Below, piece by piece: positions 37,807 to 63,831 of a stretch of 63,831 bases of DNA. The notes below the pieces were generated by a model that saw only the letters and a program-made list of their open reading frames with translations, made no database searches and was not told the origin of the DNA. Source of the stretch: a virus (taxonomy: Duplodnaviria > Caudoviricetes); IMG/VR virus record IMGVR_UViG_3300035670_007084, positions 1-63,831 of that record. One strand, given 5' to 3'. The position numbers were made by a program, and so were the translations under genes. How positions within the stretch are numbered: the stretch's first letter is position 1; each line of letters begins with the position of its first letter.

Positions 37807-38845
37807 TCGGAATTTTCTCTTTGAGTTTATTAAGCATTGCCCTGCCCTCATCAGTTAATGTTCTTCCTCTTGGTGTTCTTGATATTAATCCATTCTTAAA
37901 TAAGAATGCTTCCTTGTTTAGATAGTTCTTGTTTGATGTTCCTAAGAAAGAACAGATAGCTTGTATACCAACAATATTTGATTTACTAATACACTCCAAT
38001 ATTTTTAAATCATCTTTGGTATATCCATTGTCTAATACATTCTGATTATATAACGCTGATTGCACATTACCATCAAGATAATATGTTGATCTTAAATAAG
38101 ATATAGCAGTTCTTGGAGTGTTTCGTGCATTCCTAGAAATGATTTTATAAATAGATTCACAATCACCTGTCAAGTCATTAAATTCGTGGGCTTTAAGCTG
38201 CCTTAAAATCTTTATTATATCATCTTCTGTATAACCATCTAGCTGAACTTGTAATGGAAACCTTTGAACAAAGGGTTCACATTTCTCAATCATTTCTCCA
38301 TACTCAGTAGTGCATCCTATTAATGTGAACGGTGTTAAAGCCTGCCCATTAAAACTAAAGTCTGTTAATATTGTATACATTTTTTCAACAACCATTCTTT
38401 CTAATGCGTGGCATTCATCTAACACAAATATACCACCGTCTAACTGACGAATAGCATTAACAAAGAACTCAATCGTTGGAATGGTAGTAGCAATACACTC
38501 ATAGTAGTGTGTGTTTACTCTTCTAGCATTAGCAAACTCTTTAGCAAATATTCTTGCTAAAGTTGTTTTGCCACATCCTGGCAACCCCGATATTAATAAA
38601 TGTGGTGGTTGTTTTTTTCTTGCTATCACTCCTTTAATATAGCTCTGTAATAAAGTCTTTGCTTTATGTTGACCTATATATTCATCAAAAGATTGTGGAG
38701 TATAGTGAGTTGATTTTTTATCAACATCATTATATTCTATAGAAGGAAAACAATCATCAGATAAATTAAAAATATCAGTTGGTTGTTTTTTTAACCATTT
38801 GCCAACCAACCAAGCAAAAAATATAACAAATAATACAACTTCCAT
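37790..38845 (-). CDS. ruvB: RuvB-like AAA+ ATPase with N-terminal hydrophobic helix
   Basis: PQSFDEYIGQ, GLPGCGKTT, LDECH, PFTLIGCTT, RNTPR, RTPRGR. Confidence 0.88.
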   Translation of the reverse strand: MEVVLFVIFFAWLVGKWLKKQPTDIFNLSDDCFPSIEYNDVDKKSTHYTPQSFDEYIGQHKAKTLLQSYIKGVIARKKQPPHLLISGLPGCGKTTLARIFAKEFANARRVNTHYYECIATTIPTIEFFVNAIRQLDGGIFVLDECHALERMVVEKMYTILTDFSFNGQALTPFTLIGCTTEYGEMIEKCEPFVQRFPLQVQLDGYTEDDIIKILRQLKAHEFNDLTGDCESIYKIISRNARNTPRTAISYLRSTYYLDGNVQSALYNQNVLDNGYTKDDLKILECISKSNIVGIQAICSFLGTSNKNYLNKEAFLFKNGLISRTPRGRTLTDEGRAMLNKLKEKIPIDISN

Positions 38846-38854
38846 AGTAACTCC

Positions 38855-39121
38855 TTATAAACTAAAGGGTTCTAAATCTCCACTAGATAATGGTCGTTCC
38901 ATATTTGGTAGTTCAACTACCAAATCTGTTGCTAACGAATCCTTAATTAGAGTATCAAAATCTTTGATAGAACAATTATCATCGTTAATTACTGCATTAG
39001 TAATCTTATCGAGAACATATTCTATCCCATATGTTTTTAATGCTAACTTAATTATTGAAAAAAATTTATGTGGATTTATTTTGTTTGGATATTGAAACGG
39101 CATATTATTTTTTCCTTTCAT
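38855..39121 (-). CDS. Hypothetical protein
   Basis: ORF tiles between ruvB and the methyltransferase. Confidence 0.55.
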   Translation of the reverse strand: MKGKNNMPFQYPNKINPHKFFSIIKLALKTYGIEYVLDKITNAVINDDNCSIKDFDTLIKDSLATDLVVELPNMERPLSSGDLEPFSL

Positions 39122-54515: not shown

Positions 54516-54543
54516 TTGACAATTGTTAAAAAATAAGTATAAT
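54516..54543 (+). promoter_or_regulatory. Consensus sigma70 promoter of the rightward operon
   Basis: TTGACA-16 nt-TATAAT. Confidence 0.8.
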
Positions 54544-54585: not shown

Positions 54586-55422
54586 GTGGGCGAAAAATTA
54601 ATAAGTGTATTATGTATTGTTAAGAATGGTGATACTTTTTTAGAGCAGGCTTTGGGTAGTGTTCGTCCTTATGTAGATCAGGTGGTTGTTGTGGATAATA
54701 ATTCAACGGATACTACTGCAAGTATTGCTCGTAAGTTTGCTGATGTTTTTATTTGTAAGGACTATACCTCTCTGTTTTATGAGAATAAGAAAGAAAAGAC
54801 TACTGAAGATAAAGTGCGTGTTAATCAGAAGAATGATGGTCTTAAGCAAGCAGTGGGTAAGTGGGTTTTAGTTTTAGATGATGATGAGGTTTATTCGGAA
54901 GAGGATATGCTTAGATTTAAATATCATGCTAAACATTATGATGGGGTTCAGCAGCGGATTTCTTTTATGCATTTTTGGAAAACCCCTTATCAACATATTA
55001 CCGGGTTTGTGTGGAAAAATTGTCCAGAAAGATTCTATCATAGAATTGATGGTATGTTCTATGATAAGAAAGAAGATGCTGTTCAGCGTAGTTGTGGTAA
55101 GTTTGATTGGGAGTTTGGTATTGATCAATTTCCTAAAGTTAAATGCTTACATTACTCTTATTTAAAACCATCTGAATTTATATTTAATAAAATTAAATCG
55201 TATATGATTAAAGGTAGCCCCTATACAACAGAAGAACAAATTGTTAGAGCAATTTTACGACACCCTTACTTTTCTAATAACTTTAATCATAATATGGAGG
55301 GTAAGGATGGGGTGTTTTTTGCCGGAAGTAAAAAGGGTTATAGAGATAAATTAGTTAATTGTGATTTAAGTGTTCATCCAGATTTTATGATTAAAAGATT
55401 TAAAGAACTTAAACTATTATGA
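54586..55422 (+). CDS. Glycosyltransferase family 2
   Basis: CIVKNG, VVDNNSTDTT, LVLDDDE. Confidence 0.87.
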   Translation: MGEKLISVLCIVKNGDTFLEQALGSVRPYVDQVVVVDNNSTDTTASIARKFADVFICKDYTSLFYENKKEKTTEDKVRVNQKNDGLKQAVGKWVLVLDDDEVYSEEDMLRFKYHAKHYDGVQQRISFMHFWKTPYQHITGFVWKNCPERFYHRIDGMFYDKKEDAVQRSCGKFDWEFGIDQFPKVKCLHYSYLKPSEFIFNKIKSYMIKGSPYTTEEQIVRAILRHPYFSNNFNHNMEGKDGVFFAGSKKGYRDKLVNCDLSVHPDFMIKRFKELKLL

Positions 55423-55988
55423 AAACTATAGTTATAGATATTGATGATGTTCAGGATAAGTATATAGAGCAAATTGATAAGTTAGTTAAGTTAAATAAGT
55501 TAATTCATAATATTAAGTTTACTTTGTTTTATGTTCCTAATCTATTATCTCAAGAATCTAGAACTTATATAAACTTGTATAAAAACTTTTTAGAATTGGT
55601 TCCTCATGGGCTTAATCATACTCTTTATGAGTGTAAAGATTTAAATTATGACGATAGTTTTTATTTATTGGGGTTAGTTAAAAATAAAACTAATGGGTTT
55701 AAAGCACCTAACTGGTTGGTATCACAAGAGTTATTAGAATGTATTAAAGATTTAGATATGTGGATTGCTGTTCATCCTAAGCAAGAACAATTAGCTAAAG
55801 AAATTGGTTGTAAGTATTATTGTTATAATAGTTTAATTACGGCTCCTTTTGATAAAGAACTTACTAAAGCCACTGGGCATATTCATATTGATTGCTATCA
55901 CGATGATATTGATTCTGCATGGTATAATTTAATTAAGCTAGTTGATATGAAAAATGTTGAGTATAAGTTTGTTAGTGATTTTTTTTAA
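55419..55988 (+). CDS. Polysaccharide deacetylase (NodB-like)
   Basis: IDIDD, PHGLNH, GFKAPNW. Confidence 0.78.
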   Translation: MKTIVIDIDDVQDKYIEQIDKLVKLNKLIHNIKFTLFYVPNLLSQESRTYINLYKNFLELVPHGLNHTLYECKDLNYDDSFYLLGLVKNKTNGFKAPNWLVSQELLECIKDLDMWIAVHPKQEQLAKEIGCKYYCYNSLITAPFDKELTKATGHIHIDCYHDDIDSAWYNLIKLVDMKNVEYKFVSDFF

Positions 55989-56044
55989 GCGTATTAAGTA
56001 TATATAGTTATAAACAAGTATAAACAAAATGTACGGGAGAAATT

Positions 56045-56422
56045 ATGGGATGTGGATGTAAAGGTAATAAGAAAAATAGTAGGTTTGGTTATAATGTTTT
56101 AAAGGTTGCTTTAGTTTTATGTATTGTATGTTCTGTTGTCTTATGGTATAGGGCTACTAAAGAAATCAATCAAATCAATATTACTAATATTAAAAGAATA
56201 GTTGACCTTAATAATAATATAATTGAGGTAAACAATAGGTTAACTAAGTTATATGCTTACTTAGATGTTACTTATATTCCGGAACATAGTATTACTATTG
56301 ATCCAACTATTGTAGCTAAAAATAGTAGGTGGTTAATTAAAAGTGAGGGCGGTGATTTTTTTACTGAAGAAACAGTTAATGAAACAATAGACGCAATCAA
56401 CGCAATCGAGTGGGAGAAATAA
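56045..56422 (+). CDS. Single-pass membrane protein with coiled coil
   Basis: TM segment VLKVALVLCIVCSVVLW. Confidence 0.6.
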   Translation: MGCGCKGNKKNSRFGYNVLKVALVLCIVCSVVLWYRATKEINQINITNIKRIVDLNNNIIEVNNRLTKLYAYLDVTYIPEHSITIDPTIVAKNSRWLIKSEGGDFFTEETVNETIDAINAIEWEK

Positions 56423-56424
56423 CA

Positions 56425-56652
56425 ATGATAAAGGGTGTTACTAAAAAAATATTTGCTGCTTTTGGAAAAGCTATATCAAATGTAACTAAACAAAAAGATG
56501 TGGTAGCTGTTTATTGCTTTGCTTGTGAATTAACCGATGATGAGAATGAAATTGTTGTTTCTATGCGTTCTTGTGTCAATCCTAGCTTTAAGTACCATTG
56601 CCACAATGCTTTACAAGAATATTTAAAGATAAGAGCTCCTGAGGATTTTTAG
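56425..56652 (+). CDS. Hypothetical protein
   Basis: GGGAG RBS before the ATG at 56425. Confidence 0.6.
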   Translation: MIKGVTKKIFAAFGKAISNVTKQKDVVAVYCFACELTDDENEIVVSMRSCVNPSFKYHCHNALQEYLKIRAPEDF

Positions 56653-56798
56653 TAAAAATATTTTATTCTATAACTTATTTATTATCAATATGTTATAGAA
56701 ATCTTTAAAATTATTTTAAATTATTTTTAATATTCTCTTTGACAAACTTAATATTTATGATGTATCCACGTAAGTGGATAATAAGAAGGAAAATAAAA

Positions 56799-57320
56799 AT
56801 GAATATTTACTTTGGTGAAAATGTAGCTATTTCAGATAATATAATAAAAACAAATAAAATTAAAATAAAACAAACTCTTGTCGAAAAACCATATTATTTA
56901 TTATTTAAATATAGAAAAAAACTACTTGCAAGAAAAACAAAATATGAAACTTTACTTGAAGAAGAGTTAATATATAATAAAATATTATATTTACCACAAA
57001 CTATAATACACCCATATATTGTAGATTTCTTATTACCAGATAAAAAAACAATAATTGAATTAGATGGGGAATATCATTCTAGTCAAGAAGCCGTTGCATA
57101 TGATAACAGAAGAACAAATTATCTAGAACAATATGGATTTTCATTATTAAGATATAAAAACGACTTGACAATTTCTAATATGAATGATATAATAACAGAC
57201 ATTATTAATATAAAAAGTGATTATAATAATTTTAATTATACTACTCGTATTCTTAATTTAATAGAGTGTGGAAAAAAAACAAAAGCATTAGAGCTTGCTA
57301 ATAGATTTATTACATTATAA
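56799..57320 (+). CDS. DUF559/Vsr-like PD-(D/E)XK endonuclease
   Basis: TKYE, Q, YIVDF, IIELDGEYH, YDNRRTNYLEQYGFSLLRYKN; AAGGA RBS before the ATG at 56799. Confidence 0.87.
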   Translation: MNIYFGENVAISDNIIKTNKIKIKQTLVEKPYYLLFKYRKKLLARKTKYETLLEEELIYNKILYLPQTIIHPYIVDFLLPDKKTIIELDGEYHSSQEAVAYDNRRTNYLEQYGFSLLRYKNDLTISNMNDIITDIINIKSDYNNFNYTTRILNLIECGKKTKALELANRFITL

Positions 57321-57354
57321 TTTGTTCTTTATCAATTATATATAAAGGTCGTTA

Positions 57355-57775
57355 AGCAATGATGGAATTAGTTCTATGTTTGGGGCTAGTTCCATATCTT
57401 GACATGATATGGTAAAGTTGACCGCTTTACTGTCAGGAATGATGTTATACTGTAACTCCCTAACCCGGAGAAGGTCCTACTACAAACATAGAGGTTATCA
57501 TCAACCTCGTCTGCGATACGGACGCAAATGGGTATCAAAGAGGTTCTTACTAATGATAATGTTCTTATCTTAGTAACGGCTGATTAATGATGACTAGTAT
57601 TATAAATGATTAAAATCCCATATAAGTATATGGATGATGGGTTCGGTGTCTTTAAAGTGTTCGCTACACGAACACAAATCGTTTTTAGATTGTTAAGTTA
57701 GTAATTGTTTTGATGTCAGTAAAATAAAACAATTAGTAAGTTAACAATCGCTGATAAGTAAAACTTATCAGCATT
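57355..57775 (+). ncRNA. Candidate large structured non-coding RNA
   Basis: About ten adjacent hairpins, many G-U pairs that only work on the + strand, a 10-bp long-range pairing, and no ORF of 60 aa or more. Confidence 0.6.
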
Positions 57776-58078
57776 CAGTTCTTTAGTATTTTTTAAAAAT
57801 CTCTATTTTTAAAGCTGCCTAGAAGTGTGTATGTATAGGAATTGATGTAAGAAATAAAAGAAAAGGATAAAAACCCTTGCCAGCAAGAAGCAAAAGAGAT
57901 AATTCATTCAAGAGAAAATATTGGCATCACAGAAAAAGAAAACCTATCTATGTATCATTTGATTCTAAAGAAATCATTGATAAATGGGAAGAGTTGACTA
58001 AACTACTAAAAGAACGAACAATTGATTATAAGATGATGGTGTTGTGGTTTGATAACTTTCTTTATAAGGAATTGAGGA

Positions 58079-58921
58079 ATGATGAACGAGTACGATCTAC
58101 AAGTGCAGAAGCTGGTATCGCAATACAAAAAAGTTCCGAATATGGCGAGCAAGACAGATGCGGAACTAATGGTAATTGCGGAAAAAGCAATATCTAAGAG
58201 AAAAGCTAAAGAGTCTGCTCCTGACTTTGATTTTAAAGCAGTATTCAAAGACAAAGAGTATATTGATTTAGCTAACTCATTATTAAATAAATACTTAAGT
58301 GATTTTAATATAGAAACACAAGCTGACAGAAGTACGCTGATGCAGTTAATTCAGCTAGAAGTAATTCATAAAATGCTTTTTGAGAAGCTTGTAAGAACTG
58401 TAGATGGCACCTCTAAGGTGCAAAGTCAGAACCTTAAGTTGGTTCACGATAATATGGAGCAGCAACGCAAGCTCAAAACCGATTTAGGTGTTAGTGGATC
58501 ACAAGAAGGTTCTGTCTATAATTATATTCAACAGTTGATTAAGCGGGGAACTGTTTGGGCTGAAACCCTGAACAAAGCTGATAGGACATTTTTCTGTCAA
58601 CACTGTTCTCAGCCTAATCTTCTGTTGTTTAAAATAGATCAATACTTTCCAATTAAACACCCTTTCTTTCAGGGAAGATATATTACCAACCATAAACTTA
58701 TCGAATTATATCTTGAGAAAAAATTAACAGAAAAAGATATTGCTGAAATATTTGATGTAGCTAAAATTGATTATATGAAGTGGATTATATCTAAGTTCTA
58801 TACTAAAGAGCATTTAGATAAAATAAAAGAAACTCAAAGTAAGCATTATAATAGAAAGTTTTCTGATGGTAAAGAAGAGAATCCCGAAGAAGAAACTACT
58901 GAACCTAGTACGGAAGTATAA
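58079..58921 (+). CDS. Putative terminase small subunit
   Basis: Helical, KLKTDLGV motif, CQHC; lies upstream of TerL. Confidence 0.55.
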   Translation: MMNEYDLQVQKLVSQYKKVPNMASKTDAELMVIAEKAISKRKAKESAPDFDFKAVFKDKEYIDLANSLLNKYLSDFNIETQADRSTLMQLIQLEVIHKMLFEKLVRTVDGTSKVQSQNLKLVHDNMEQQRKLKTDLGVSGSQEGSVYNYIQQLIKRGTVWAETLNKADRTFFCQHCSQPNLLLFKIDQYFPIKHPFFQGRYITNHKLIELYLEKKLTEKDIAEIFDVAKIDYMKWIISKFYTKEHLDKIKETQSKHYNRKFSDGKEENPEEETTEPSTEV

Positions 58922-59225
58922 GAAAAAACTAAAGCTCGATAATTACGAGATTGATATAATTTTTTCGGATTCCCCTAGGCATATAGTAACTAATAAAATT
59001 GTAGCTGATAACTCAGCTAGGGCAGATGTTGTTAGGTCTGATAGTGATGAAAATGAGTTTACGATAGTTTTCTATGATTTTTCAAATATTGAATCAGATG
59101 TAATTCACGAACTGCTACATATTAGATTTTGGGATGTGTGTAAAAAATATAAATATAAGAAACTAAACAACTTAGAGCACGATTTCATAGAGGCGTTAAT
59201 TCCTATTTGGTGTAATGTATGCTAA
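58866..59225 (+). CDS. HExxH zincin-like metallopeptidase
   Basis: VIHELLH with a downstream Glu. Confidence 0.65.
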   Translation: MVKKRIPKKKLLNLVRKYKKKLKLDNYEIDIIFSDSPRHIVTNKIVADNSARADVVRSDSDENEFTIVFYDFSNIESDVIHELLHIRFWDVCKKYKYKKLNNLEHDFIEALIPIWCNVC

Positions 59226-60823
59226 AAAAATTGAGTGAAGAAGAACAAATATTGTTTGAATGTCTTTGTATGTCTAGAAGTTTTGTTGAGATTATGTTTA
59301 GTAATCTTGATAATCTACTTGAGTTTGAAGATGAAAAATTTGCGTTCATTAGACCATATCAGGAAACGATGTTATCATATGAATACTCAGTTGCTACCGA
59401 TCCAGAACTTTCAGATAAAGAAAACTTTTTAAGAAAGAAAGGTGCTGGTGATAGTTATGCTATTGCTAGTCGAAGAATTGGTAAATCATTAGTATTTCTA
59501 ATATGTGATATGTTGCAATCAATTATGTTACTTGCTGGATGTGAAACAGCGTTTGGTTCATACGATGCAAACCATGTTAGAAAAATATTTTCAAGTATTA
59601 TTCCGGTTGTTGAATATCATCCTTGTTATAAAGGTATAAAGAAAGTTTATAATCAAACCCCACAATACTTATATATAGGTAAGAATGGAATGAAAATTAG
59701 TGGGGTTAATGAGAATGCTATAAACCAAAGAAAAGCTGGTGAAAACTGGATTGGGCTTCATCCTATGAAAACATGGTATGAAGAAATCAGCAGATGGTGT
59801 TCTGTTGCACAAGAGAAGCAAACAGAAGCTGTATCAGAGCTTGGTGTTATTTTTAGAGGAAGTGGTATGGCTGATTGCACAAAGAATTCCCCGGCTGGTG
59901 AAATAGTTTCCGATAGAAGAAATAAAAACATTATTATTAATTATAGTCAGTTTGTTAATCCAACCTGGGATGAGTATACACGCAAAGAATCTTTAAAGAA
60001 ATATAAAAGCGAGGCATCGTTTGGTTGGAAAGTATATGTTCTTGGTGAGTTAGTTGAAGATGGTTACTCGGCTTTAGATATGAAGCTTGTTAGTGAATGT
60101 TACAACGACACCACAGAAATAAAAAACATAGAAATAAACAAAACAACTTTTTCATATTATCAGGATTTGTTGATTGTTGATAAGCCAAAAGATGCAGAAT
60201 GTACTTATATAGCTACCGATATATCAGATATTGGAACGACAGAAACCGTTATAATATTTGATACATTGTCTGGTTTAAAGTATAGGTATAACATAACTAT
60301 GCTAGGGCTCACGGATGAGCAAATTTATTTAGTGTTAAAATTTCTTGGAGAGAAGCTTGGTGCCAATGTATTAGCATTGGATTGTGGTGAGGCAGCTGGG
60401 CGTGGAGTATCAAGGCGGTTATTAAAAGATTTCTCCGCTGAAAATATTTTTGAATATGCTGGTAATAAAAAAATAGTTGTTGAATTTGAAAGAACAAAAG
60501 ATAACTATTTAAAATATGATACCGCTGGCAAAGCAATTGTTAAAGAAGAGTTTATGTCAGAATGGGCAGTTCAAATAATAAAAGAAATTTTTTATAATAA
60601 AAGAATAGACATACCAATTGATCATAAATTAGATGAGCAACTAAGCAAGCTTGTTTCTACTAAGTCGGGTAACAGAGTATTGTATGCTATAAGTGGTGAA
60701 GATCATTTATTTGATGCCTTTAAAGTTTTTTGTTGTGCGTGGTGGCAGAATCACTTATCAATAATATCACCGATTAAAAAGAAAAAGTTTTGCAAAACCG
60801 GAGTTACTACTGTAAATAGATAG
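59219..60823 (+). CDS. Terminase large subunit
   Basis: RPYQ, Walker A SRRIGKS, Walker B WYEE; nuclease IATD, LALD, DHLFDAF. Confidence 0.88.
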   Translation: MLKKLSEEEQILFECLCMSRSFVEIMFSNLDNLLEFEDEKFAFIRPYQETMLSYEYSVATDPELSDKENFLRKKGAGDSYAIASRRIGKSLVFLICDMLQSIMLLAGCETAFGSYDANHVRKIFSSIIPVVEYHPCYKGIKKVYNQTPQYLYIGKNGMKISGVNENAINQRKAGENWIGLHPMKTWYEEISRWCSVAQEKQTEAVSELGVIFRGSGMADCTKNSPAGEIVSDRRNKNIIINYSQFVNPTWDEYTRKESLKKYKSEASFGWKVYVLGELVEDGYSALDMKLVSECYNDTTEIKNIEINKTTFSYYQDLLIVDKPKDAECTYIATDISDIGTTETVIIFDTLSGLKYRYNITMLGLTDEQIYLVLKFLGEKLGANVLALDCGEAAGRGVSRRLLKDFSAENIFEYAGNKKIVVEFERTKDNYLKYDTAGKAIVKEEFMSEWAVQIIKEIFYNKRIDIPIDHKLDEQLSKLVSTKSGNRVLYAISGEDHLFDAFKVFCCAWWQNHLSIISPIKKKKFCKTGVTTVNR

Positions 60824-60834
60824 ATGGAGAATAT

Positions 60835-62640
60835 ATGACAGATCCACAAGCAAGAGGTTCCGCACTAAGCAGTCAATACTATAAGATGTTGATTGACCTT
60901 ATGACATTTTCTGGTAAGGGTGCAATAAAAGTACCAACATCGTATCATCAACGAGTAAAAGAAGTTAAGAAACTTATCGAAGTTGATAATACAGGATTGG
61001 CTACCACTCTGACTAGTTTCCAAATAAATGCAGCTACAGTACCAATTAATATTGAAACCCAAAACAAACAACTAACAAAGATTCTTGATGCTTGGAGTCA
61101 AACTGTAAACTTTAAAATGAAGATGGTTGAAACTGGATTACAGGGTTTGATGGGGCAATATTATAAAGAAAGATGGCAGGGTTCTAGCTTTATAGTATTA
61201 AAGACAGTTTGGGAAAATGTTGGTGGATTTAATTTACCTGTTCAGATGTATCTATTAGACGGTGGTAGTATTTATAGTGTAAAAGAAAAGGGTGAACCAA
61301 TTATTGTTGGTAATCCAAAATACGAAATAAGATATGGTTCAAAAGAAACAGATAAAGAACCAATAGTTGATAACAAAAATATAAAATATTTCTTTCAAAA
61401 TCCTTTTGGAACATGGGGTGAGATATATCCATCACCTTATATTATTAATCGTGGTATTTATTATAATCAGCAGTTCTTAAATGAAATCAAAGAGAAGGGC
61501 GCAAGCGTAATTAAACGAGCGATTGAACATATCTTTGCTCTCAAAAAAGGTTTTAAAGAAGCCGTCCTTCAAGATAAAGATGCTAACATATATGATAAGA
61601 CAGACTTAGAAAGAACCGATAAAGATTTAAGAGATGTTTTAGATTCTAGAAAATATACTGAAGATATGACAACATATACTTCCAATTTTGATACTGAAAT
61701 GGAACACATTATTCCAGAGTATAAAAGGATATTGAATGCGGAAGTAATAGTTCCTGCTGAAAAAGGTTTATTATCTTCTCTTGGTTTTGTTGAAATGTAT
61801 AGTATGCAAACGAGGAAAGAAGAAGTATTTAATCCAAAACCTTTTATGGCGGAAGCACAAGATGGTATTAATGATTTTGTTTCTTTAATAGGTGATGTTG
61901 TTTATACTATTATAGAAGAAAACAGAGCAACGCATCCAAAATATAGCAATGTTGAACCAATTAAAATAAATACTGGACCAATGACCACATTTATTGACAG
62001 CGAGGCTAAAAAGATTCTTAGAAGTATTTATGATCGAGGTGGTATTTCTAAAAGAACGCTTACTGAAATTGGTGCAGGTTGTGATTTTGATATTGAACTT
62101 AATCGTATCACACAAGAGAAAAAAGATGGCGTTGATAAGGTTATGTCACCTAATCCAATTCAGGTATCTGATACCCTTCTTCTTAGTGATAGGACAAGCA
62201 CTACGGTTCAGAAAAAACAAAACGAGGAAGAAGATATTCCCGATGATAAACAAAGTATTGAAACCCGTAACTTTGAAGTTTCACAAAAAGAGAATGGTAA
62301 AATAAAAGAAGATTTAGTTACCGCACCATATGATGATATATCTGAGTTACCCGATACAGTAAAGGTTCTTCCTGATAAAGCAAAAAAAATGTGGATGGAA
62401 GTATTTAACTCTGTATATAAAAATAAAAAAGATGAAACTATAGCTATTAAGTCTGCTTGGTCTACAGTTAAGAAATATTTTAAGAAAAATAAAGATGGTT
62501 CTTGGGTTCAAAAAGAAAAAGCAAACTTAGATACAGTTGATTTTAATGAGCTATTAGATGTTCAAAAACTCACTATGCTTTCTAAACAAAACAAACTTTT
62601 AGATAAGATTTTGAAAGAGAACGAAAATGAAACTATTTAG
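60835..62640 (+). CDS. Portal protein with C-terminal ChaB domain
   Basis: Directly follows TerL, portal size, GISKRT; ChaB signature PYDDISELPDTVKVLPDKAKKMWMEVFNS...AWSTVKKYF. Confidence 0.75.
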   Translation: MTDPQARGSALSSQYYKMLIDLMTFSGKGAIKVPTSYHQRVKEVKKLIEVDNTGLATTLTSFQINAATVPINIETQNKQLTKILDAWSQTVNFKMKMVETGLQGLMGQYYKERWQGSSFIVLKTVWENVGGFNLPVQMYLLDGGSIYSVKEKGEPIIVGNPKYEIRYGSKETDKEPIVDNKNIKYFFQNPFGTWGEIYPSPYIINRGIYYNQQFLNEIKEKGASVIKRAIEHIFALKKGFKEAVLQDKDANIYDKTDLERTDKDLRDVLDSRKYTEDMTTYTSNFDTEMEHIIPEYKRILNAEVIVPAEKGLLSSLGFVEMYSMQTRKEEVFNPKPFMAEAQDGINDFVSLIGDVVYTIIEENRATHPKYSNVEPIKINTGPMTTFIDSEAKKILRSIYDRGGISKRTLTEIGAGCDFDIELNRITQEKKDGVDKVMSPNPIQVSDTLLLSDRTSTTVQKKQNEEEDIPDDKQSIETRNFEVSQKENGKIKEDLVTAPYDDISELPDTVKVLPDKAKKMWMEVFNSVYKNKKDETIAIKSAWSTVKKYFKKNKDGSWVQKEKANLDTVDFNELLDVQKLTMLSKQNKLLDKILKENENETI

Positions 62641-62920
62641 TGATGTAGGTCTTAAAAAAGAAATTACCATTCTTGATTTTGGTATAGTTGATGCCGGAGA
62701 AAGTAAAACAGTATCATATTATTTATATAACGATACTGGAACTAAGATAGTTGATCTTAATTTAAAAGTTAATAATGGGGAAGTTTACATTGCTGATTAT
62801 CCTAAAGATTTAGAGAAGAACGCTGTTGCTGAAATTAAACTAACATGGAAATCTTCTTTAAATATTAAAGCCGGGTTAAAAGCAACTCTAGATATAAAAG
62901 CTGCTGAACTGTGGAGTTAA
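62627..62920 (+). CDS. Small Ig-like virion protein
   Basis: LDFGIVDAGESKTVSYYLYNDTG beta-sandwich pattern. Confidence 0.55.
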   Translation: MKLFSDVGLKKEITILDFGIVDAGESKTVSYYLYNDTGTKIVDLNLKVNNGEVYIADYPKDLEKNAVAEIKLTWKSSLNIKAGLKATLDIKAAELWS

Positions 62921-62926
62921 TAGCAT

Positions 62927-63322
62927 ATGAGTAAGTTAGTTAACGAAGGTGAGAATAGAATATCAAATATTTTATTTGGTGCTCAAGCTGTTGATGATGT
63001 GTTATATCTTGGTTTATTTTTAGATAATGAGGAGCCTGGTGAAACAGCGGGGCTTGCTGGCTTAACCGAACCAACAGGTAATGGTTATGAACGAGTTACC
63101 CTCAATCGTGGTTCTTGGGTAGTTACCGGAGATACAAGTGTTTATGCTGAACAAACTTTTACAGCATCTGGTGGTAATTGGGGAAATGTATATGGATATT
63201 TTATAGGAACATCCGAGGATAATTCGGGTAAATTATTATTTGTAGAATTATTTTCAGATGGACCATATAATGTTTTTAGTGGTGACAGTATTAAAATAAC
63301 TCCAACAATTATACTAGCATGA
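62927..63322 (+). CDS. Virion structural (fibre-associated) protein
   Basis: LYLGLF, EPTGNGYERV, FTASGGNWGNVYGYFI. Confidence 0.7.
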   Translation: MSKLVNEGENRISNILFGAQAVDDVLYLGLFLDNEEPGETAGLAGLTEPTGNGYERVTLNRGSWVVTGDTSVYAEQTFTASGGNWGNVYGYFIGTSEDNSGKLLFVELFSDGPYNVFSGDSIKITPTIILA

Positions 63323-63337
63323 CGGTAAATATAATAT

Positions 63338-63831
63338 ATGAAAAAACTTTTACTTATACTTGGTTTACTAACTTCTATAGCTACTTGTGTATTTGCTGAT
63401 GATTGGAAAGAAGATCCCAACTCCCCCTCTTATACAGAAAATACATATACAACTAATGCTAATTTGTTTATCGCTCCATACGCATCACCTCGTTATGATT
63501 TGACACTTAATAGAAACCTTGTGATTCTTGATTCGATATTAGGCGATGTTGAGTATAACGCTGATTTGACGGACGATGTTACAAAATGGGTTGATGTTAC
63601 ATATCCGAATCTTGATACTGATGGGACGGACGATTTACTAAACAATGCAGACGATACAACGAGTGGTTCTTTATGGGCGGTGAATTATTACGCATCGGGT
63701 GATGTGGTTGTAACGGATGATATTTTCGCTGACCAAATAACTGCACAAGCAGGGAATGGTAGTATTATTGCTCTACCAGCCGCAGGGGCAATAATTGTTA
63801 AAGATGATGTCGGAACTGGTGGGTATATAAG
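63338..63831 (+). CDS. Fibre-like virion protein with N-terminal signal peptide, 3'-truncated (absent from the ORF track)
   Basis: Open to the window end: MKKLLLILGLLTSIATCVFA-DDWKEDP...YTTNANLFIAP...LNRNLVILDS. Confidence 0.7.
   Translation, partial: MKKLLLILGLLTSIATCVFADDWKEDPNSPSYTENTYTTNANLFIAPYASPRYDLTLNRNLVILDSILGDVEYNADLTDDVTKWVDVTYPNLDTDGTDDLLNNADDTTSGSLWAVNYYASGDVVVTDDIFADQITAQAGNGSIIALPAAGAIIVKDDVGTGGYI

Follow-up and report, generated by a model that had tools for sequence, protein, structure and literature searches.

The locus and its genes

The window analysed here is a 63,831-nt segment of DNA from an uncultured phage. Just 5´ of its DNA-packaging genes lies a 556-base gene-free stretch (57321-57876). 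An earlier note on this DNA had described the region as devoid of ORFs, and this is borne out: the longest ORF within it has 54 aa, whether table 11, table 4 or TAG=Q is applied, and table 4 and TAG=Q, tried as alternative codes, open no ORF within 57321-57876. The 54-aa ORF looks non-coding, as judged from its codon score of -0.25 per codon, lower than in all in-frame 54-codon windows of 29 long genes. It found no match among 1.84 billion representative proteins. As a small-protein gene it was rejected for its lack of a homologue, its poor codon score and the missing ribosome-binding site before its ATG at 57409. As a side observation, an AGGA does stand ahead of its internal ATG at 57439. 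The description of the surrounding genome as nearly gap-free did not hold, since the window contains 18 stretches of at least 150 nt without an ORF of at least 75 aa.

The gene preceding the stretch (56799-57320, + strand) encodes a DUF559/Vsr-type endonuclease of 173 aa. Its residues 44-137 match PF04480 (E 2.5e-18; 66.4 bits versus a cut-off of 20.6), and DUF559 and a related restriction-fold model are the only Pfam families that respond; outside these residues there are only short stretches with no family match. The codon score of the gene (0.335) is typical for genes of this phage. The closest homologue shares 37% identity over 57% of the length, none was found in IMG/VR, and a DUF559 gene is absent from all 160 TerL-related loci. 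In composition, the gene (GC 0.18-0.25) differs sharply from the structured stretch, which reaches 0.395 in a window of 0.32. An excerpt of PMC3424549 describes the DUF559 family as repair or homing nucleases. By its sequence, the protein is probably a free-standing homing-type endonuclease. It resembles the free-standing Vsr-like and DUF559 homing endonucleases of phages, as far as the excerpts of PMC2677866 and PMC3424549 describe them, in being a small Vsr-fold orphan inserted between phage genes. It differs from those excerpted from PMC2677866 in that the structured DNA lies here downstream of the ORF and there, as hairpins, upstream, and that homing is here only predicted.

On the other side, a doubtful 106-aa ORF with a TTG start (57877-58197, + strand) overlaps the following TerS ORF by 119 nt. 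It has no Pfam or PHROG family, its sole match is the record of the window itself, and its codon score of 0.10-0.15 compares with a gene mean of 0.33. Should it not be a gene, the non-coding leader would extend to 58078. The neighbouring ORFs of 80, 125 and 106 aa gave no sequence family, and Protein Atlas returned only scores below 0.9 for the 80-aa and 106-aa ones.

The packaging block proper begins with a TerS-like protein of 280 aa (58079-58921, + strand), which has a weak PHROG small-terminase match (E 0.0015). Its gene is the first conserved one of the block; 118 of 160 related loci have it ahead of TerL. A protein of 534 aa encoded further on (59219-60823, + strand) had no match in sequence-only searches of Pfam, PHROG and PDB sequences. 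With its AlphaFold model (pLDDT 73.4), the top 38 Foldseek matches are large terminases, with E down to 7e-11, and the terminases of D6E, T4, Sf6, HK97 and T7 score between 7e-11 and 1e-7. According to this predicted model, the protein is a large terminase, recognisable by fold and not by sequence. It is followed by a conserved 601-aa protein (60835-62640, + strand) with a C-terminal ChaB domain (Pfam E 4e-14) and tblastn matches in 137 of 160 related loci, which by position only we presume to be the portal. Inteins were noticed in three of 17 TerL homologues; the packaging module of the relatives is a target of mobile elements.

Hairpins and inverted repeats

All ten hairpins that had been proposed for the stretch fold as claimed and where claimed. 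Hairpin 1 (57362-57395, + strand) indeed has 15 pairs including four G-U pairs, closed by a loop of 4, and reaches -17.9 kcal/mol on the + strand and -5.4 on the - strand. Of all 40-nt segments of the window, only one folds more stably on the + strand, and on the - strand the top 15 do not include this position. Only one base (57396) separates it from hairpin 2 (57397-57438, + strand), which consists of two stacked stems (-12.6 kcal/mol on +, -6.9 on -) and has two G-U pairs in the minimum-energy fold where three had been counted. The 3´ arm of hairpin 2 contains the AGGA that stands ahead of ATG 57439. A 10-nt string at this hairpin, AGGAATGATG, is identical to the TerS start region (58075-58084), and hairpin 2 also has a word that may be boxA-like.

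The top of hairpin 1 had further been proposed to form a pseudoknot or switch. The 10-nt complement between 57373-57382 and 57483-57492 is exact; yet 22% of dinucleotide-shuffled versions of the stretch contain one of this length, so that the pseudoknot is not significant on its own. It also requires bases that are paired in the stem of hairpin 1, itself very stable.

Five small hairpins follow on the + strand (57456-57470, 57491-57508, 57508-57524, 57547-57576 and 57618-57633). Their energies range from -2.9 to -6.9 kcal/mol, neither strand is preferred, and they coincide with the GC peak of 0.395. Beyond them, three terminator-like or long hairpins stand in tandem within at most 140 nt, directly before the packaging operon. 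The first (57657-57685, + strand; -7.6 kcal/mol), found by a consensus scan, has seven pairs, four of them G-C, and a U-rich tail; it is weak by the usual rule because the U run starts 5 nt past the stem. The second is an AT-rich inverted repeat (57688-57749) with 24-nt arms around a 14-nt spacer, whose stem of about 23-24 pairs is broken by two 1x1 mismatches (-21.7 kcal/mol on +, -14.8 on -). It is the longest inverted repeat in the 63.8-kb window, its arm sequence is unique there, and it has no flanking T run, in contrast to the clear terminators of the phage at 7631-7685 and 53445-53493. The third (57750-57795, + strand) has a perfect stem of 10 pairs (57750-57772; -11.7 kcal/mol on both strands), after which an interrupted U-rich tract can be read from the sequence up to 57795. 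The candidates for intrinsic terminators in the leader are thus 57657-57685, with a displaced U run, and 57750-57795, with an interrupted U tract. Both appear weak by consensus and lack a clean U run, unlike the clear terminators of this phage.

Folding statistics and strand preference

A comparison with shuffled controls had been suggested for the fold, and the region passes it. As a whole it has a z-score of -6.40 on the + strand, and none of 100 shuffles folds as well. The - strand is nearly equal (z -5.97), and the whole-region value is largely owed to the two near-perfect palindromes at 57688-57772. When these are left out, the 341-nt core (57345-57685) gives -2.64 on the + strand and -2.48 on the - strand; it folds only modestly better than shuffles, and about equally on both strands. 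Z-scores of single hairpins are biased, because the segments were picked for folding.

The local picture is more specific. Among the 18 ORF-poor gaps of the window the stretch ranks best by fold. In a GC-corrected sliding scan of 80-nt blocks, the one starting at 57321 is ranked 6 of 6329 on the + strand, behind its own overlapping neighbours only, and 373 of 6329 on the - strand. The stretch is therefore the most locally structured + strand block of the 64-kb window and is unremarkable on the - strand. Each of the three largest hairpins prefers the + strand by 6-12 kcal/mol. The proposal of a + strand RNA stands as the best reading, given the G-U-dependent hairpins, the high rank in the local scan on the + strand only, and a perfect + strand promoter upstream.

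These values also bear on the possibility that the stretch has no dedicated function and represents a long 3´ untranslated tail and terminator region belonging to the upstream operon, or a scar that arrived with the mobile nuclease gene, its hairpins merely shielding the upstream mRNA or insulating the flanks. The modest z-score of the core would agree with this, as would the fact that stretch and nuclease are both unique to this genome; an excerpt of PMC2677866 moreover reports that free-standing homing nuclease genes of phages import control elements and hairpins. However, a neutral scar would not rank top in 64 kb or show strand-specific G-U stems, the composition is sharply unlike that of the nuclease gene, and the hairpins excerpted from PMC2677866 precede the nuclease ORF, whereas here they follow it. 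We consider lack of function rather unlikely.

Search for RNA families

The statement that the RNA belongs to no named family is confirmed by Rfam 15, which has no match at gathering score in the whole window. At E up to 10, the region 57200-58100 yields five matches at chance level, with models of miRNA, snoRNA or sRNA only (13-20 bits versus cut-offs of 56-90). Rfam includes the families of phi29 pRNA, GOLLD, ROOL and IscB/HEARO. No tRNA or tmRNA gene was found in the window by ARAGORN or the Rfam tRNA model, and ARAGORN under relaxed settings gives for 57150-57950 either no gene or two artefacts with 300-nt "introns".

Two roles considered in the earlier note received no positive evidence. 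A phi29-type packaging RNA is without an Rfam match. The same is true for an origin or primer RNA, and no replication genes were seen among the ORFs examined from 54586 to 63829. The broader idea of a packaging-associated RNA survives in a weaker sense only, as a leader of the packaging operon.

Another conceivable structured RNA is a group I intron or its remnant, in which the P1 loop would contain the nuclease ORF and the core would be the structured part of 400 nt. Vsr-like homing nucleases do occur in phage introns with the ORF in the P1 loop, according to excerpts of PMC2677866 and PMC3239194, so that the ORF precedes the ribozyme core; a table excerpted from PMC3424549 groups DUF559 and Vsr with such an intron nuclease, and the size of the structured part would fit. 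Nevertheless, neither RF00028 nor the scan with all families finds a group I core at E up to 10; RF00028 alone, run over the whole window at this threshold, was silent while control genomes did respond. A split gene would show in homologues of the flanking ORFs, but these have none. Since the downstream ORF has an open frame only from 57871 on, an intron joined in that frame would have to end within 57870-57878; these bases include no G, and a canonical 3´ terminal G with in-frame joining is impossible there. The intron reading is thus largely refuted, and we regard it as extremely improbable.

A consensus promoter inside the nuclease gene

Within the 3´ part of the DUF559 gene, 130-160 nt upstream of the stretch and pointing into it, lies an extended promoter of sigma-70 type (57165-57193, + strand): TTGACA, 17 nt, TG-n-TATAAT, matching at 12 of 12 positions and with the TG. 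Transcription would start at about 57200, as we infer from its sequence. Six such perfect promoters occur in the window, all co-directional with the local genes; 200 shuffled versions have 0.20 on average and never as many as six, and the phage therefore really uses this promoter type. A host-type promoter upstream of a late operon, as in lambda, is predicted here by the consensus match only.

The position of the promoter would suit a ribonucleoprotein, in which the DUF559 nuclease would bind the RNA as guide or scaffold, as the earlier note had envisaged. The RNA of TnpB-type loci begins within the 3´-terminal part of the nuclease ORF and extends past it, and the layout found here would be similar by analogy. 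The protein, however, is an orphan of DUF559/Vsr type and a minimal 173-aa domain of a family known for repair and homing, and the composition of its gene is unlike that of the RNA. We know of no RNA-guided members of the DUF559 family, and the nuclease does not belong to the RuvC/TnpB/IscB lineage that characterizes RNA-guided loci. Because it has no close homologue and none of the 160 loci carries it, co-occurrence of nuclease and RNA cannot be shown. The proposed ribonucleoprotein is not supported, and we judge it highly improbable.

Near-consensus promoters of the same form lie at most 150 nt from TerS in 27 of 86 distinct TerS-upstream regions of relatives. The promoter at 57165-57193 is 886 nt away from TerS, compared with this limit of 150 nt, and may therefore serve another purpose. 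The region 57773-57876 may hold an unrecognised late promoter. A decayed copy of the relatives´ promoter was sought there by eye; at most seven of 12 positions match, and we do not claim it. In the relative L059, such a promoter precedes a hairpin-bearing leader of about 330 nt, after which come a small ORF and TerS.

Comparison with related loci

No credible homologue of the stretch was found in the 160 TerL-related loci by blastn, nhmmer or tblastx. The best DNA match is an AT-rich one of 38 nt (E 0.004), situated at 13162-13199 of L015, far from the gap upstream of TerS. An all-against-all comparison of 86 upstream regions, five whole related records and the phage collection likewise gave no homologue, and an exact search of IMG/VR with a 20-nt core word found no other copy, so that neither conservation nor covariation speaks for the stretch. 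TerL, used as a single protein against the phage collection and IMG/VR, had no match; its closest relatives are P0002 (84% identical, on a contig of 2999 nt) and P0003 (52%, on one of 17 kb). Three sequencing runs contain the phage, all of them DNA and from one subsurface study. Their sequence is identical, and the contigs have no variants that might reveal covariation in the population. Cover of 57627-57848 is low in runs X2 and X3 and not interpretable.

The relatives do show what else may occupy this place. Arrays of tRNA genes stand just 5´ of TerS in L015 (24 genes), L067 (23), L115 (25), L006 (16) and L157 (4), L100 has a tmRNA plus a tRNA, and tRNAs lie between TerS and TerL in L083, L138 and L093. 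The clade keeps RNA-gene islands next to TerS. Separately, some relatives were seen to have non-coding regions of 1.5-3 kb next to TerS with a conserved hairpin.

The stretch might accordingly encode one or more free-standing, stable non-coding RNAs acting in trans, made from the promoter at 57165, ending at the hairpin cluster and placed in the slot that relatives fill with tRNA or tmRNA genes. A strong promoter of its own, a hairpin cluster at a fitting distance and a GC content of 0.395 in a genome of 0.32 would suit such RNAs. The stretch nevertheless has no likeness to tRNA, tmRNA or any Rfam family, even with relaxed ARAGORN; it lies downstream of the promoter, whereas the arrays of L157 and L115 lie upstream of the TerS promoter; and with no homologue there is no sign of selection beyond one genome. 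We hold a trans-acting RNA to be unlikely. It is rather doubtful that it would be an independent phage RNA of an undescribed kind, about 0.5 kb long and with its own strong promoter, functionally replacing the tRNA and tmRNA islands of relatives. Roles in host translation, in defence or as a partner of the adjacent orphan nuclease are examples of what such an RNA might do, and they seem similarly doubtful to us.

A site acting at the level of DNA is a further alternative. The long AT-rich inverted repeat and its surroundings would then be bound or cleaved by a protein, for example as a packaging start (cos or pac) with the nuclease as helper, or would be the recognition region of the homing nuclease. 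The order of nuclease, non-coding stretch, TerS, TerL and portal mirrors HNH-terminase modules in an excerpt of PMC12967558, including the gene order of HNH-cos-terS modules of the HK97 gp74 type; the nuclease here is DUF559 and not HNH, and it is not conserved beside terS of relatives. The inverted repeat at 57688-57749, the longest in the window and unique, has two-fold symmetry around its 14-nt spacer. Furthermore, 20 of 27 relatives´ contigs of at least 26 kb end 2-12 kb upstream of TerL, and the ends of four records rated 81-100% complete by CheckV, including one that has terminal repeats, fall 0.9-3.8 kb 5´ of TerS. Symmetry of DNA, however, does not explain why the largest hairpins ahead of the repeat, which depend on G-U pairs, are so much less stable on the - strand. 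None of the 160 loci has DUF559, and none of 16 upstream neighbour proteins is DUF559 or HNH. Direct repeats typical for small-terminase binding were not found, the contig of run X1 and the window both continue straight through the stretch, and the record with terminal repeats ends 3.2 kb from TerS, beyond three genes and outside the adjacent gap. We consider a DNA site quite improbable.

A proposed leader of the packaging operon

Most likely, the stretch is a folded non-coding leader transcribed from a host-type promoter and not a guide RNA of the nuclease. More specifically, we tentatively propose, at somewhat less than even confidence, a + strand leader or short RNA of about 0.5-0.7 kb that would gate entry into the TerS-TerL operon. 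The model starts from the hairpins, their + strand bias, the absent coding signal, the match and orientation of the promoter and the occurrence of its type in relatives as well; we infer the firing of the promoter, the end of the RNA and every regulatory step.

Host RNA polymerase would start near 57200 from the promoter at 57165-57193, inside the end of the nuclease gene. The transcript would first fold the two large G-U-containing hairpins (57362-57438) and then the five small ones, before reaching the tandem cluster (57657-57685, 57688-57749 and 57750-57795) ahead of the first packaging gene. Most transcripts might stop or be cut within this cluster, leaving a short RNA of about 0.46-0.6 kb, and read-through would be limited to a regulated share of the transcripts. 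The stem of the AT-rich repeat could be a processing site for a double-strand-specific enzyme of RNase III type, or a stabilising element. As a whole, this long leader would work in cis as a gate to the TerS-TerL-portal operon, at the level of transcription or of processing.

Several known systems resemble parts of this scheme. In lambdoid phages, the late promoter PR' yields a short 6S RNA ending at the terminator tR', which is read through by Q, with a leader of about 0.2 kb. The arrangement here is alike in its host-type promoter hundreds of bases before the packaging genes, its non-coding transcript and its terminator-like hairpins. It differs in its length of about 0.5-0.7 kb, its weak terminators, the lack of an identified Q-like gene or site and of any sequence relation; no gene for a Q-type antiterminator beside the promoter was identified by sequence families among the neighbouring ORFs. 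The put RNAs of HK022 consist of two stem-loops one base apart and make the polymerase resistant to termination. Hairpins 1 and 2, too, are one base apart and stand between a promoter and terminator-like hairpins, a likeness of layout only: they are larger, begin about 160 nt past the presumed start, and have no demonstrated kinship with put in sequence or structure family. Finally, RNase III processes hairpins of early or late phage transcripts, for example in T7 and lambda. The inverted repeat may be analogous to these, with its stem of some 23-24 pairs, its small internal mismatches and its location between transcription units.

A survey of IMG/VR, as excerpted from PMC10690425, found candidate cis-regulatory structures consistently upstream of a putative large terminase (14 candidates), and likewise upstream of a podovirus encapsidation gene. 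The leader proposed here shares with them its place upstream of packaging genes, and the window is itself an IMG/VR record. Those candidates, in the excerpted part, show covariation among many copies and stand at most 25 bases from the gene, whereas the present stretch is a singleton and far longer. Being a singleton, it adds an example and not a principle. If the model is true, host-type consensus promoters drive even the packaging and head genes of this phage clade, and gates at the level of RNA would therefore be needed for timing; the unusually long, hairpin-dense leader would be one such timing gate. Together with the published candidates, structured leaders before terS and terL may represent a general, barely studied layer of late-gene control.

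Gene neighbourhood and known RNA families

The window spans an entire 63,831-base virus record from IMG/VR; it has 32% GC, and CheckV puts its completeness at 46%. Its genes lie on the minus strand at 7.7-53.9 kb and on the plus strand from 54.6 kb to the end, and the 556-nt ORF-free stretch (57321-57876) belongs to the latter block. There, a glycosyltransferase gene and three small ORFs precede the gene of a 173-aa DUF559 endonuclease (56799-57320, +; Pfam PF04480, E 2.5e-18). Directly after the stretch comes a 106-aa ORF with a TTG start (57877-58197, +), which lacks homologues, scores low in codon usage and so may not be a gene. It overlaps by 119 nt, in a different frame, the ORF of a TerS-like protein with a weak PHROG match (58079-58921, +). 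A 119-aa ORF and the genes of a 534-aa protein and of a ChaB-domain protein of 601 aa follow in the same block. The 534-aa protein has no sequence match in Pfam, PHROGs or a PDB profile search; its AlphaFold model (pLDDT 73.4) matches the large terminases of D6E, T4, Sf6, HK97 and T7 with E-values of 7e-11 to 1e-7. Because of this fold match, the position upstream of terminase genes assigned to the stretch in the earlier note holds, and we call the protein TerL.

The absence of an ORF, also claimed there, is borne out under translation tables 11 and 4 and with TAG read as Q. The longest ORF in the stretch (54 aa) scores lower in codon usage than all windows taken in frame from 29 long genes, and a search of 1.84 billion representative proteins gave zero matches to it. 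No named RNA family had been recognized either, and an Rfam 15 scan of the window agrees, with nothing at gathering score and only chance-level matches at E up to 10. ARAGORN, relaxed settings included, finds no tRNA or tmRNA, and the whole window is devoid of tRNAs.

A group I intron deserved separate attention because Vsr-like nucleases are known to be encoded in the P1 loop of phage group I introns (described in part of PMC2677866), and DUF559 is grouped with Vsr-like intron nucleases (in a section of PMC3424549), and also because the reading frame of the ORF downstream leaves no room for an in-frame junction ending in G. The intron model run alone gave no match at E up to 10, and we consider such an intron very improbable.

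Hairpin structure of the stretch

All ten hairpins listed in the earlier note fold as proposed, although hairpin 2 (57397-57438) contains two G-U pairs and not three. The suggested pseudoknot loses weight, as a 10-nt complement appears in 22% of shuffles, and the genome is not nearly gap-free: the window holds 18 ORF-poor gaps (at least 150 nt without an ORF of at least 75 aa). The stretch is by far the most structured of these (z -7.3/-6.5 with 15 shuffles; next best -4.5). Dense folding beyond that of shuffled sequence is confirmed for the entire stretch (z -6.40 on the plus and -5.97 on the minus strand) but is modest for the 341-nt core without the two palindromes at 57688-57772 (z -2.64 and -2.48 on the two strands).

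The structure is biased to the plus strand. A fold scan of the entire window with sliding 80-nt segments, corrected for GC, places the block 57301-57851 first on the plus strand; on the minus strand it takes only rank 373 of 6329. Only one 40-nt hairpin of the plus strand is more stable than hairpin 1 (57362-57395), which is not in the top 15 of the minus strand, and the three largest hairpins of the stretch are more stable on the plus strand by 6-12 kcal/mol. Second among plus-strand blocks in the same scan is 38451-39001, which covers a gap between two minus-strand genes; this gap also has a near-consensus minus-strand promoter (39161-39133) and a 14-nt inverted repeat (38900-38928).

Three hairpin elements stand in tandem inside 140 nt at the tail of the stretch: a terminator-like hairpin (57657-57685, +), the longest inverted repeat of the entire window (57688-57749), whose arm has no second copy anywhere in it, and a perfect hairpin of 10 pairs, followed by an interrupted U tract. 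Further, the TerS start region AGGAATGATG has an exact second copy at 57435-57444, within hairpin 2.

Promoters

Within the nuclease gene, 886 nt from TerS, the plus strand carries a perfect sigma-70 promoter of the extended type (57165-57193; TTGACA, 17 nt, TG-n-TATAAT). Perfect promoters (TTGACA-N16-18-TATAAT) number six in the window (13650-13622, 26557-26529, 31708-31680 and 37806-37778 on the minus strand, 54516-54543 and 57165-57193 on the plus strand), against a shuffle mean of 0.20, and none of 200 shuffles reached six. All six are co-directional with local genes and two lie, as does 57165-57193, in the 3´ end of the upstream gene. Judging from these sequences, the phage seems to depend throughout on consensus promoters for host sigma-70, also ahead of its structural genes.

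Relatives of the locus

The protein collection contains 16 TerL relatives; the closest two are 84% and 52% identical. Inteins (PF14890 with LAGLIDADG or Hint-type domains) occur in three of 17 TerL homologues (P0005, P0009 and P0016; 698-933 aa); mobile elements thus target the packaging genes of this clade. A search of IMG/VR and metagenomes with an alignment of 14 TerL sequences yielded 160 loci, with identities of 32-44% throughout. Scored by tblastn with the window's proteins, TerL is present in 160/160, the 601-aa protein in 137, the TerS-like protein in 118 and the 119-aa ORF in one; DUF559, the 106-, 80-, 125- and 189-aa ORFs and the glycosyltransferase are each found in none. A single 419,765-nt metagenome contig (L141-L143) has three copies of one TerL locus, about 109 kb apart; we take it for a concatemer-like assembly because the spacing fits the 109,385-nt IMG/VR record of locus L020.

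For the stretch itself, no credible match came up in the 160 loci (blastn, nhmmer, tblastx), none when 86 distinct TerS-upstream regions were compared all against all and none in five whole related records, the phage collection or IMG/VR (exact word); it is a singleton among the sequences searched. The phage is present, with identical sequence, in three runs from a single subsurface study; all are of DNA, and none of the runs listed is of RNA. The DUF559 protein is an orphan as well (best relative 37% identical over 57% of its length; no homologue in IMG/VR). As to the question raised in the earlier note, the stretch is seen to track with neither nuclease nor terminase in the sequences covered. 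A nuclease-RNA particle, as proposed there, is hardly credible. That the stretch is a functionless tail or scar of a mobile nuclease is somewhat easier to imagine, yet still quite unlikely.

Near TerS, relatives have promoters and RNA genes. Near-consensus promoters of the same form lie at most 150 nt from TerS in 27 of the 86 regions, with near-identical sequence in several phages whose regions otherwise do not align. RNA-gene islands adjoin TerS: arrays of 4-25 tRNAs directly upstream (L015, L067, L115, L006, L157), a tmRNA (118 bits) with tRNA-Glu (L100, 289-555), and tRNAs between TerS and TerL (L083, L138, L093). Since relatives have such arrays, tmRNA or scattered tRNAs here, the stretch might encode a stand-alone stable RNA; we find this unlikely, as nothing tRNA-like is present in it and the arrays of L157 and L115 lie upstream of the promoter. 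Elsewhere in the set, one related contig matches the type-P5 twister ribozyme (L038, 635-694, -; 43.9 bits against a cut-off of 37.6).

The layout of L059 is comparable to ours: a promoter, then a leader of about 330 nt with strong hairpins, a small ORF and TerS. One of these hairpins, about 51 nt long and containing G-U pairs, stands in L059 downstream of the near-consensus promoter (1640-1695) and is conserved in L129 (about 2600-2660) and L133. It lies 400-480 nt upstream of TerS and is 90-93% identical between L059 and L129/L133, within flanks that do not align. It has no Rfam match and is a candidate conserved leader element. L059 (200-1743) and L129 (1-3045) further contain 1.5-3 kb upstream of TerS that is very AT-rich, in L059 with repeated words, and in which no ORF of either strand exceeds 62-65 aa and neither tRNA nor Rfam match occurs.

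By our own count, 20 of 27 relatives' IMG/VR contigs of at least 26 kb terminate 2-12 kb upstream of TerL. In four related 82-90-kb records rated 81-100% complete (G006-G009), one of which has terminal repeats, the end lies 0.9-3.8 kb upstream of TerS. These positions suggest that the clade has genome ends fixed close to its packaging genes. A DNA-level site such as cos or pac would fit the contigs stopping a few kb upstream of TerS, the symmetric and unique repeat 57688-57749, and the nuclease-gap-terS order, which is that of HNH modules (in part of PMC12967558). But the stems rely on G-U pairs, relatives keep no nuclease at this place and contigs continue through the stretch, and we regard such a site as rather improbable.

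A possible model

The lambdoid PR'-6S-tR' arrangement and the HK022 put RNAs are known phage transcription elements. The layout of the stretch resembles the former and that of the adjoining hairpins 1-2 the latter, likenesses that amount to no family assignment. Candidate structured elements before phage packaging genes have been described, 14 of them upstream of a putative large terminase (PMC10690425); the stretch is longer than the candidates described there, and the promoter ahead of it lies inside a nuclease gene.

Our preferred explanation, offered tentatively, is that the stretch may be the template of a plus-strand non-coding leader or short RNA. The structure, its strand bias, the missing coding signal and the promoter match with the validation of its class are shown, while where the RNA starts and ends and what it regulates are inferred. 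Transcription would begin near 57200; the RNA would form hairpins 1-2 and then five smaller hairpins, and end or be processed at the hairpin cluster 57657-57795. Through such ending or processing, the RNA could gate transcription into the packaging operon of this phage.
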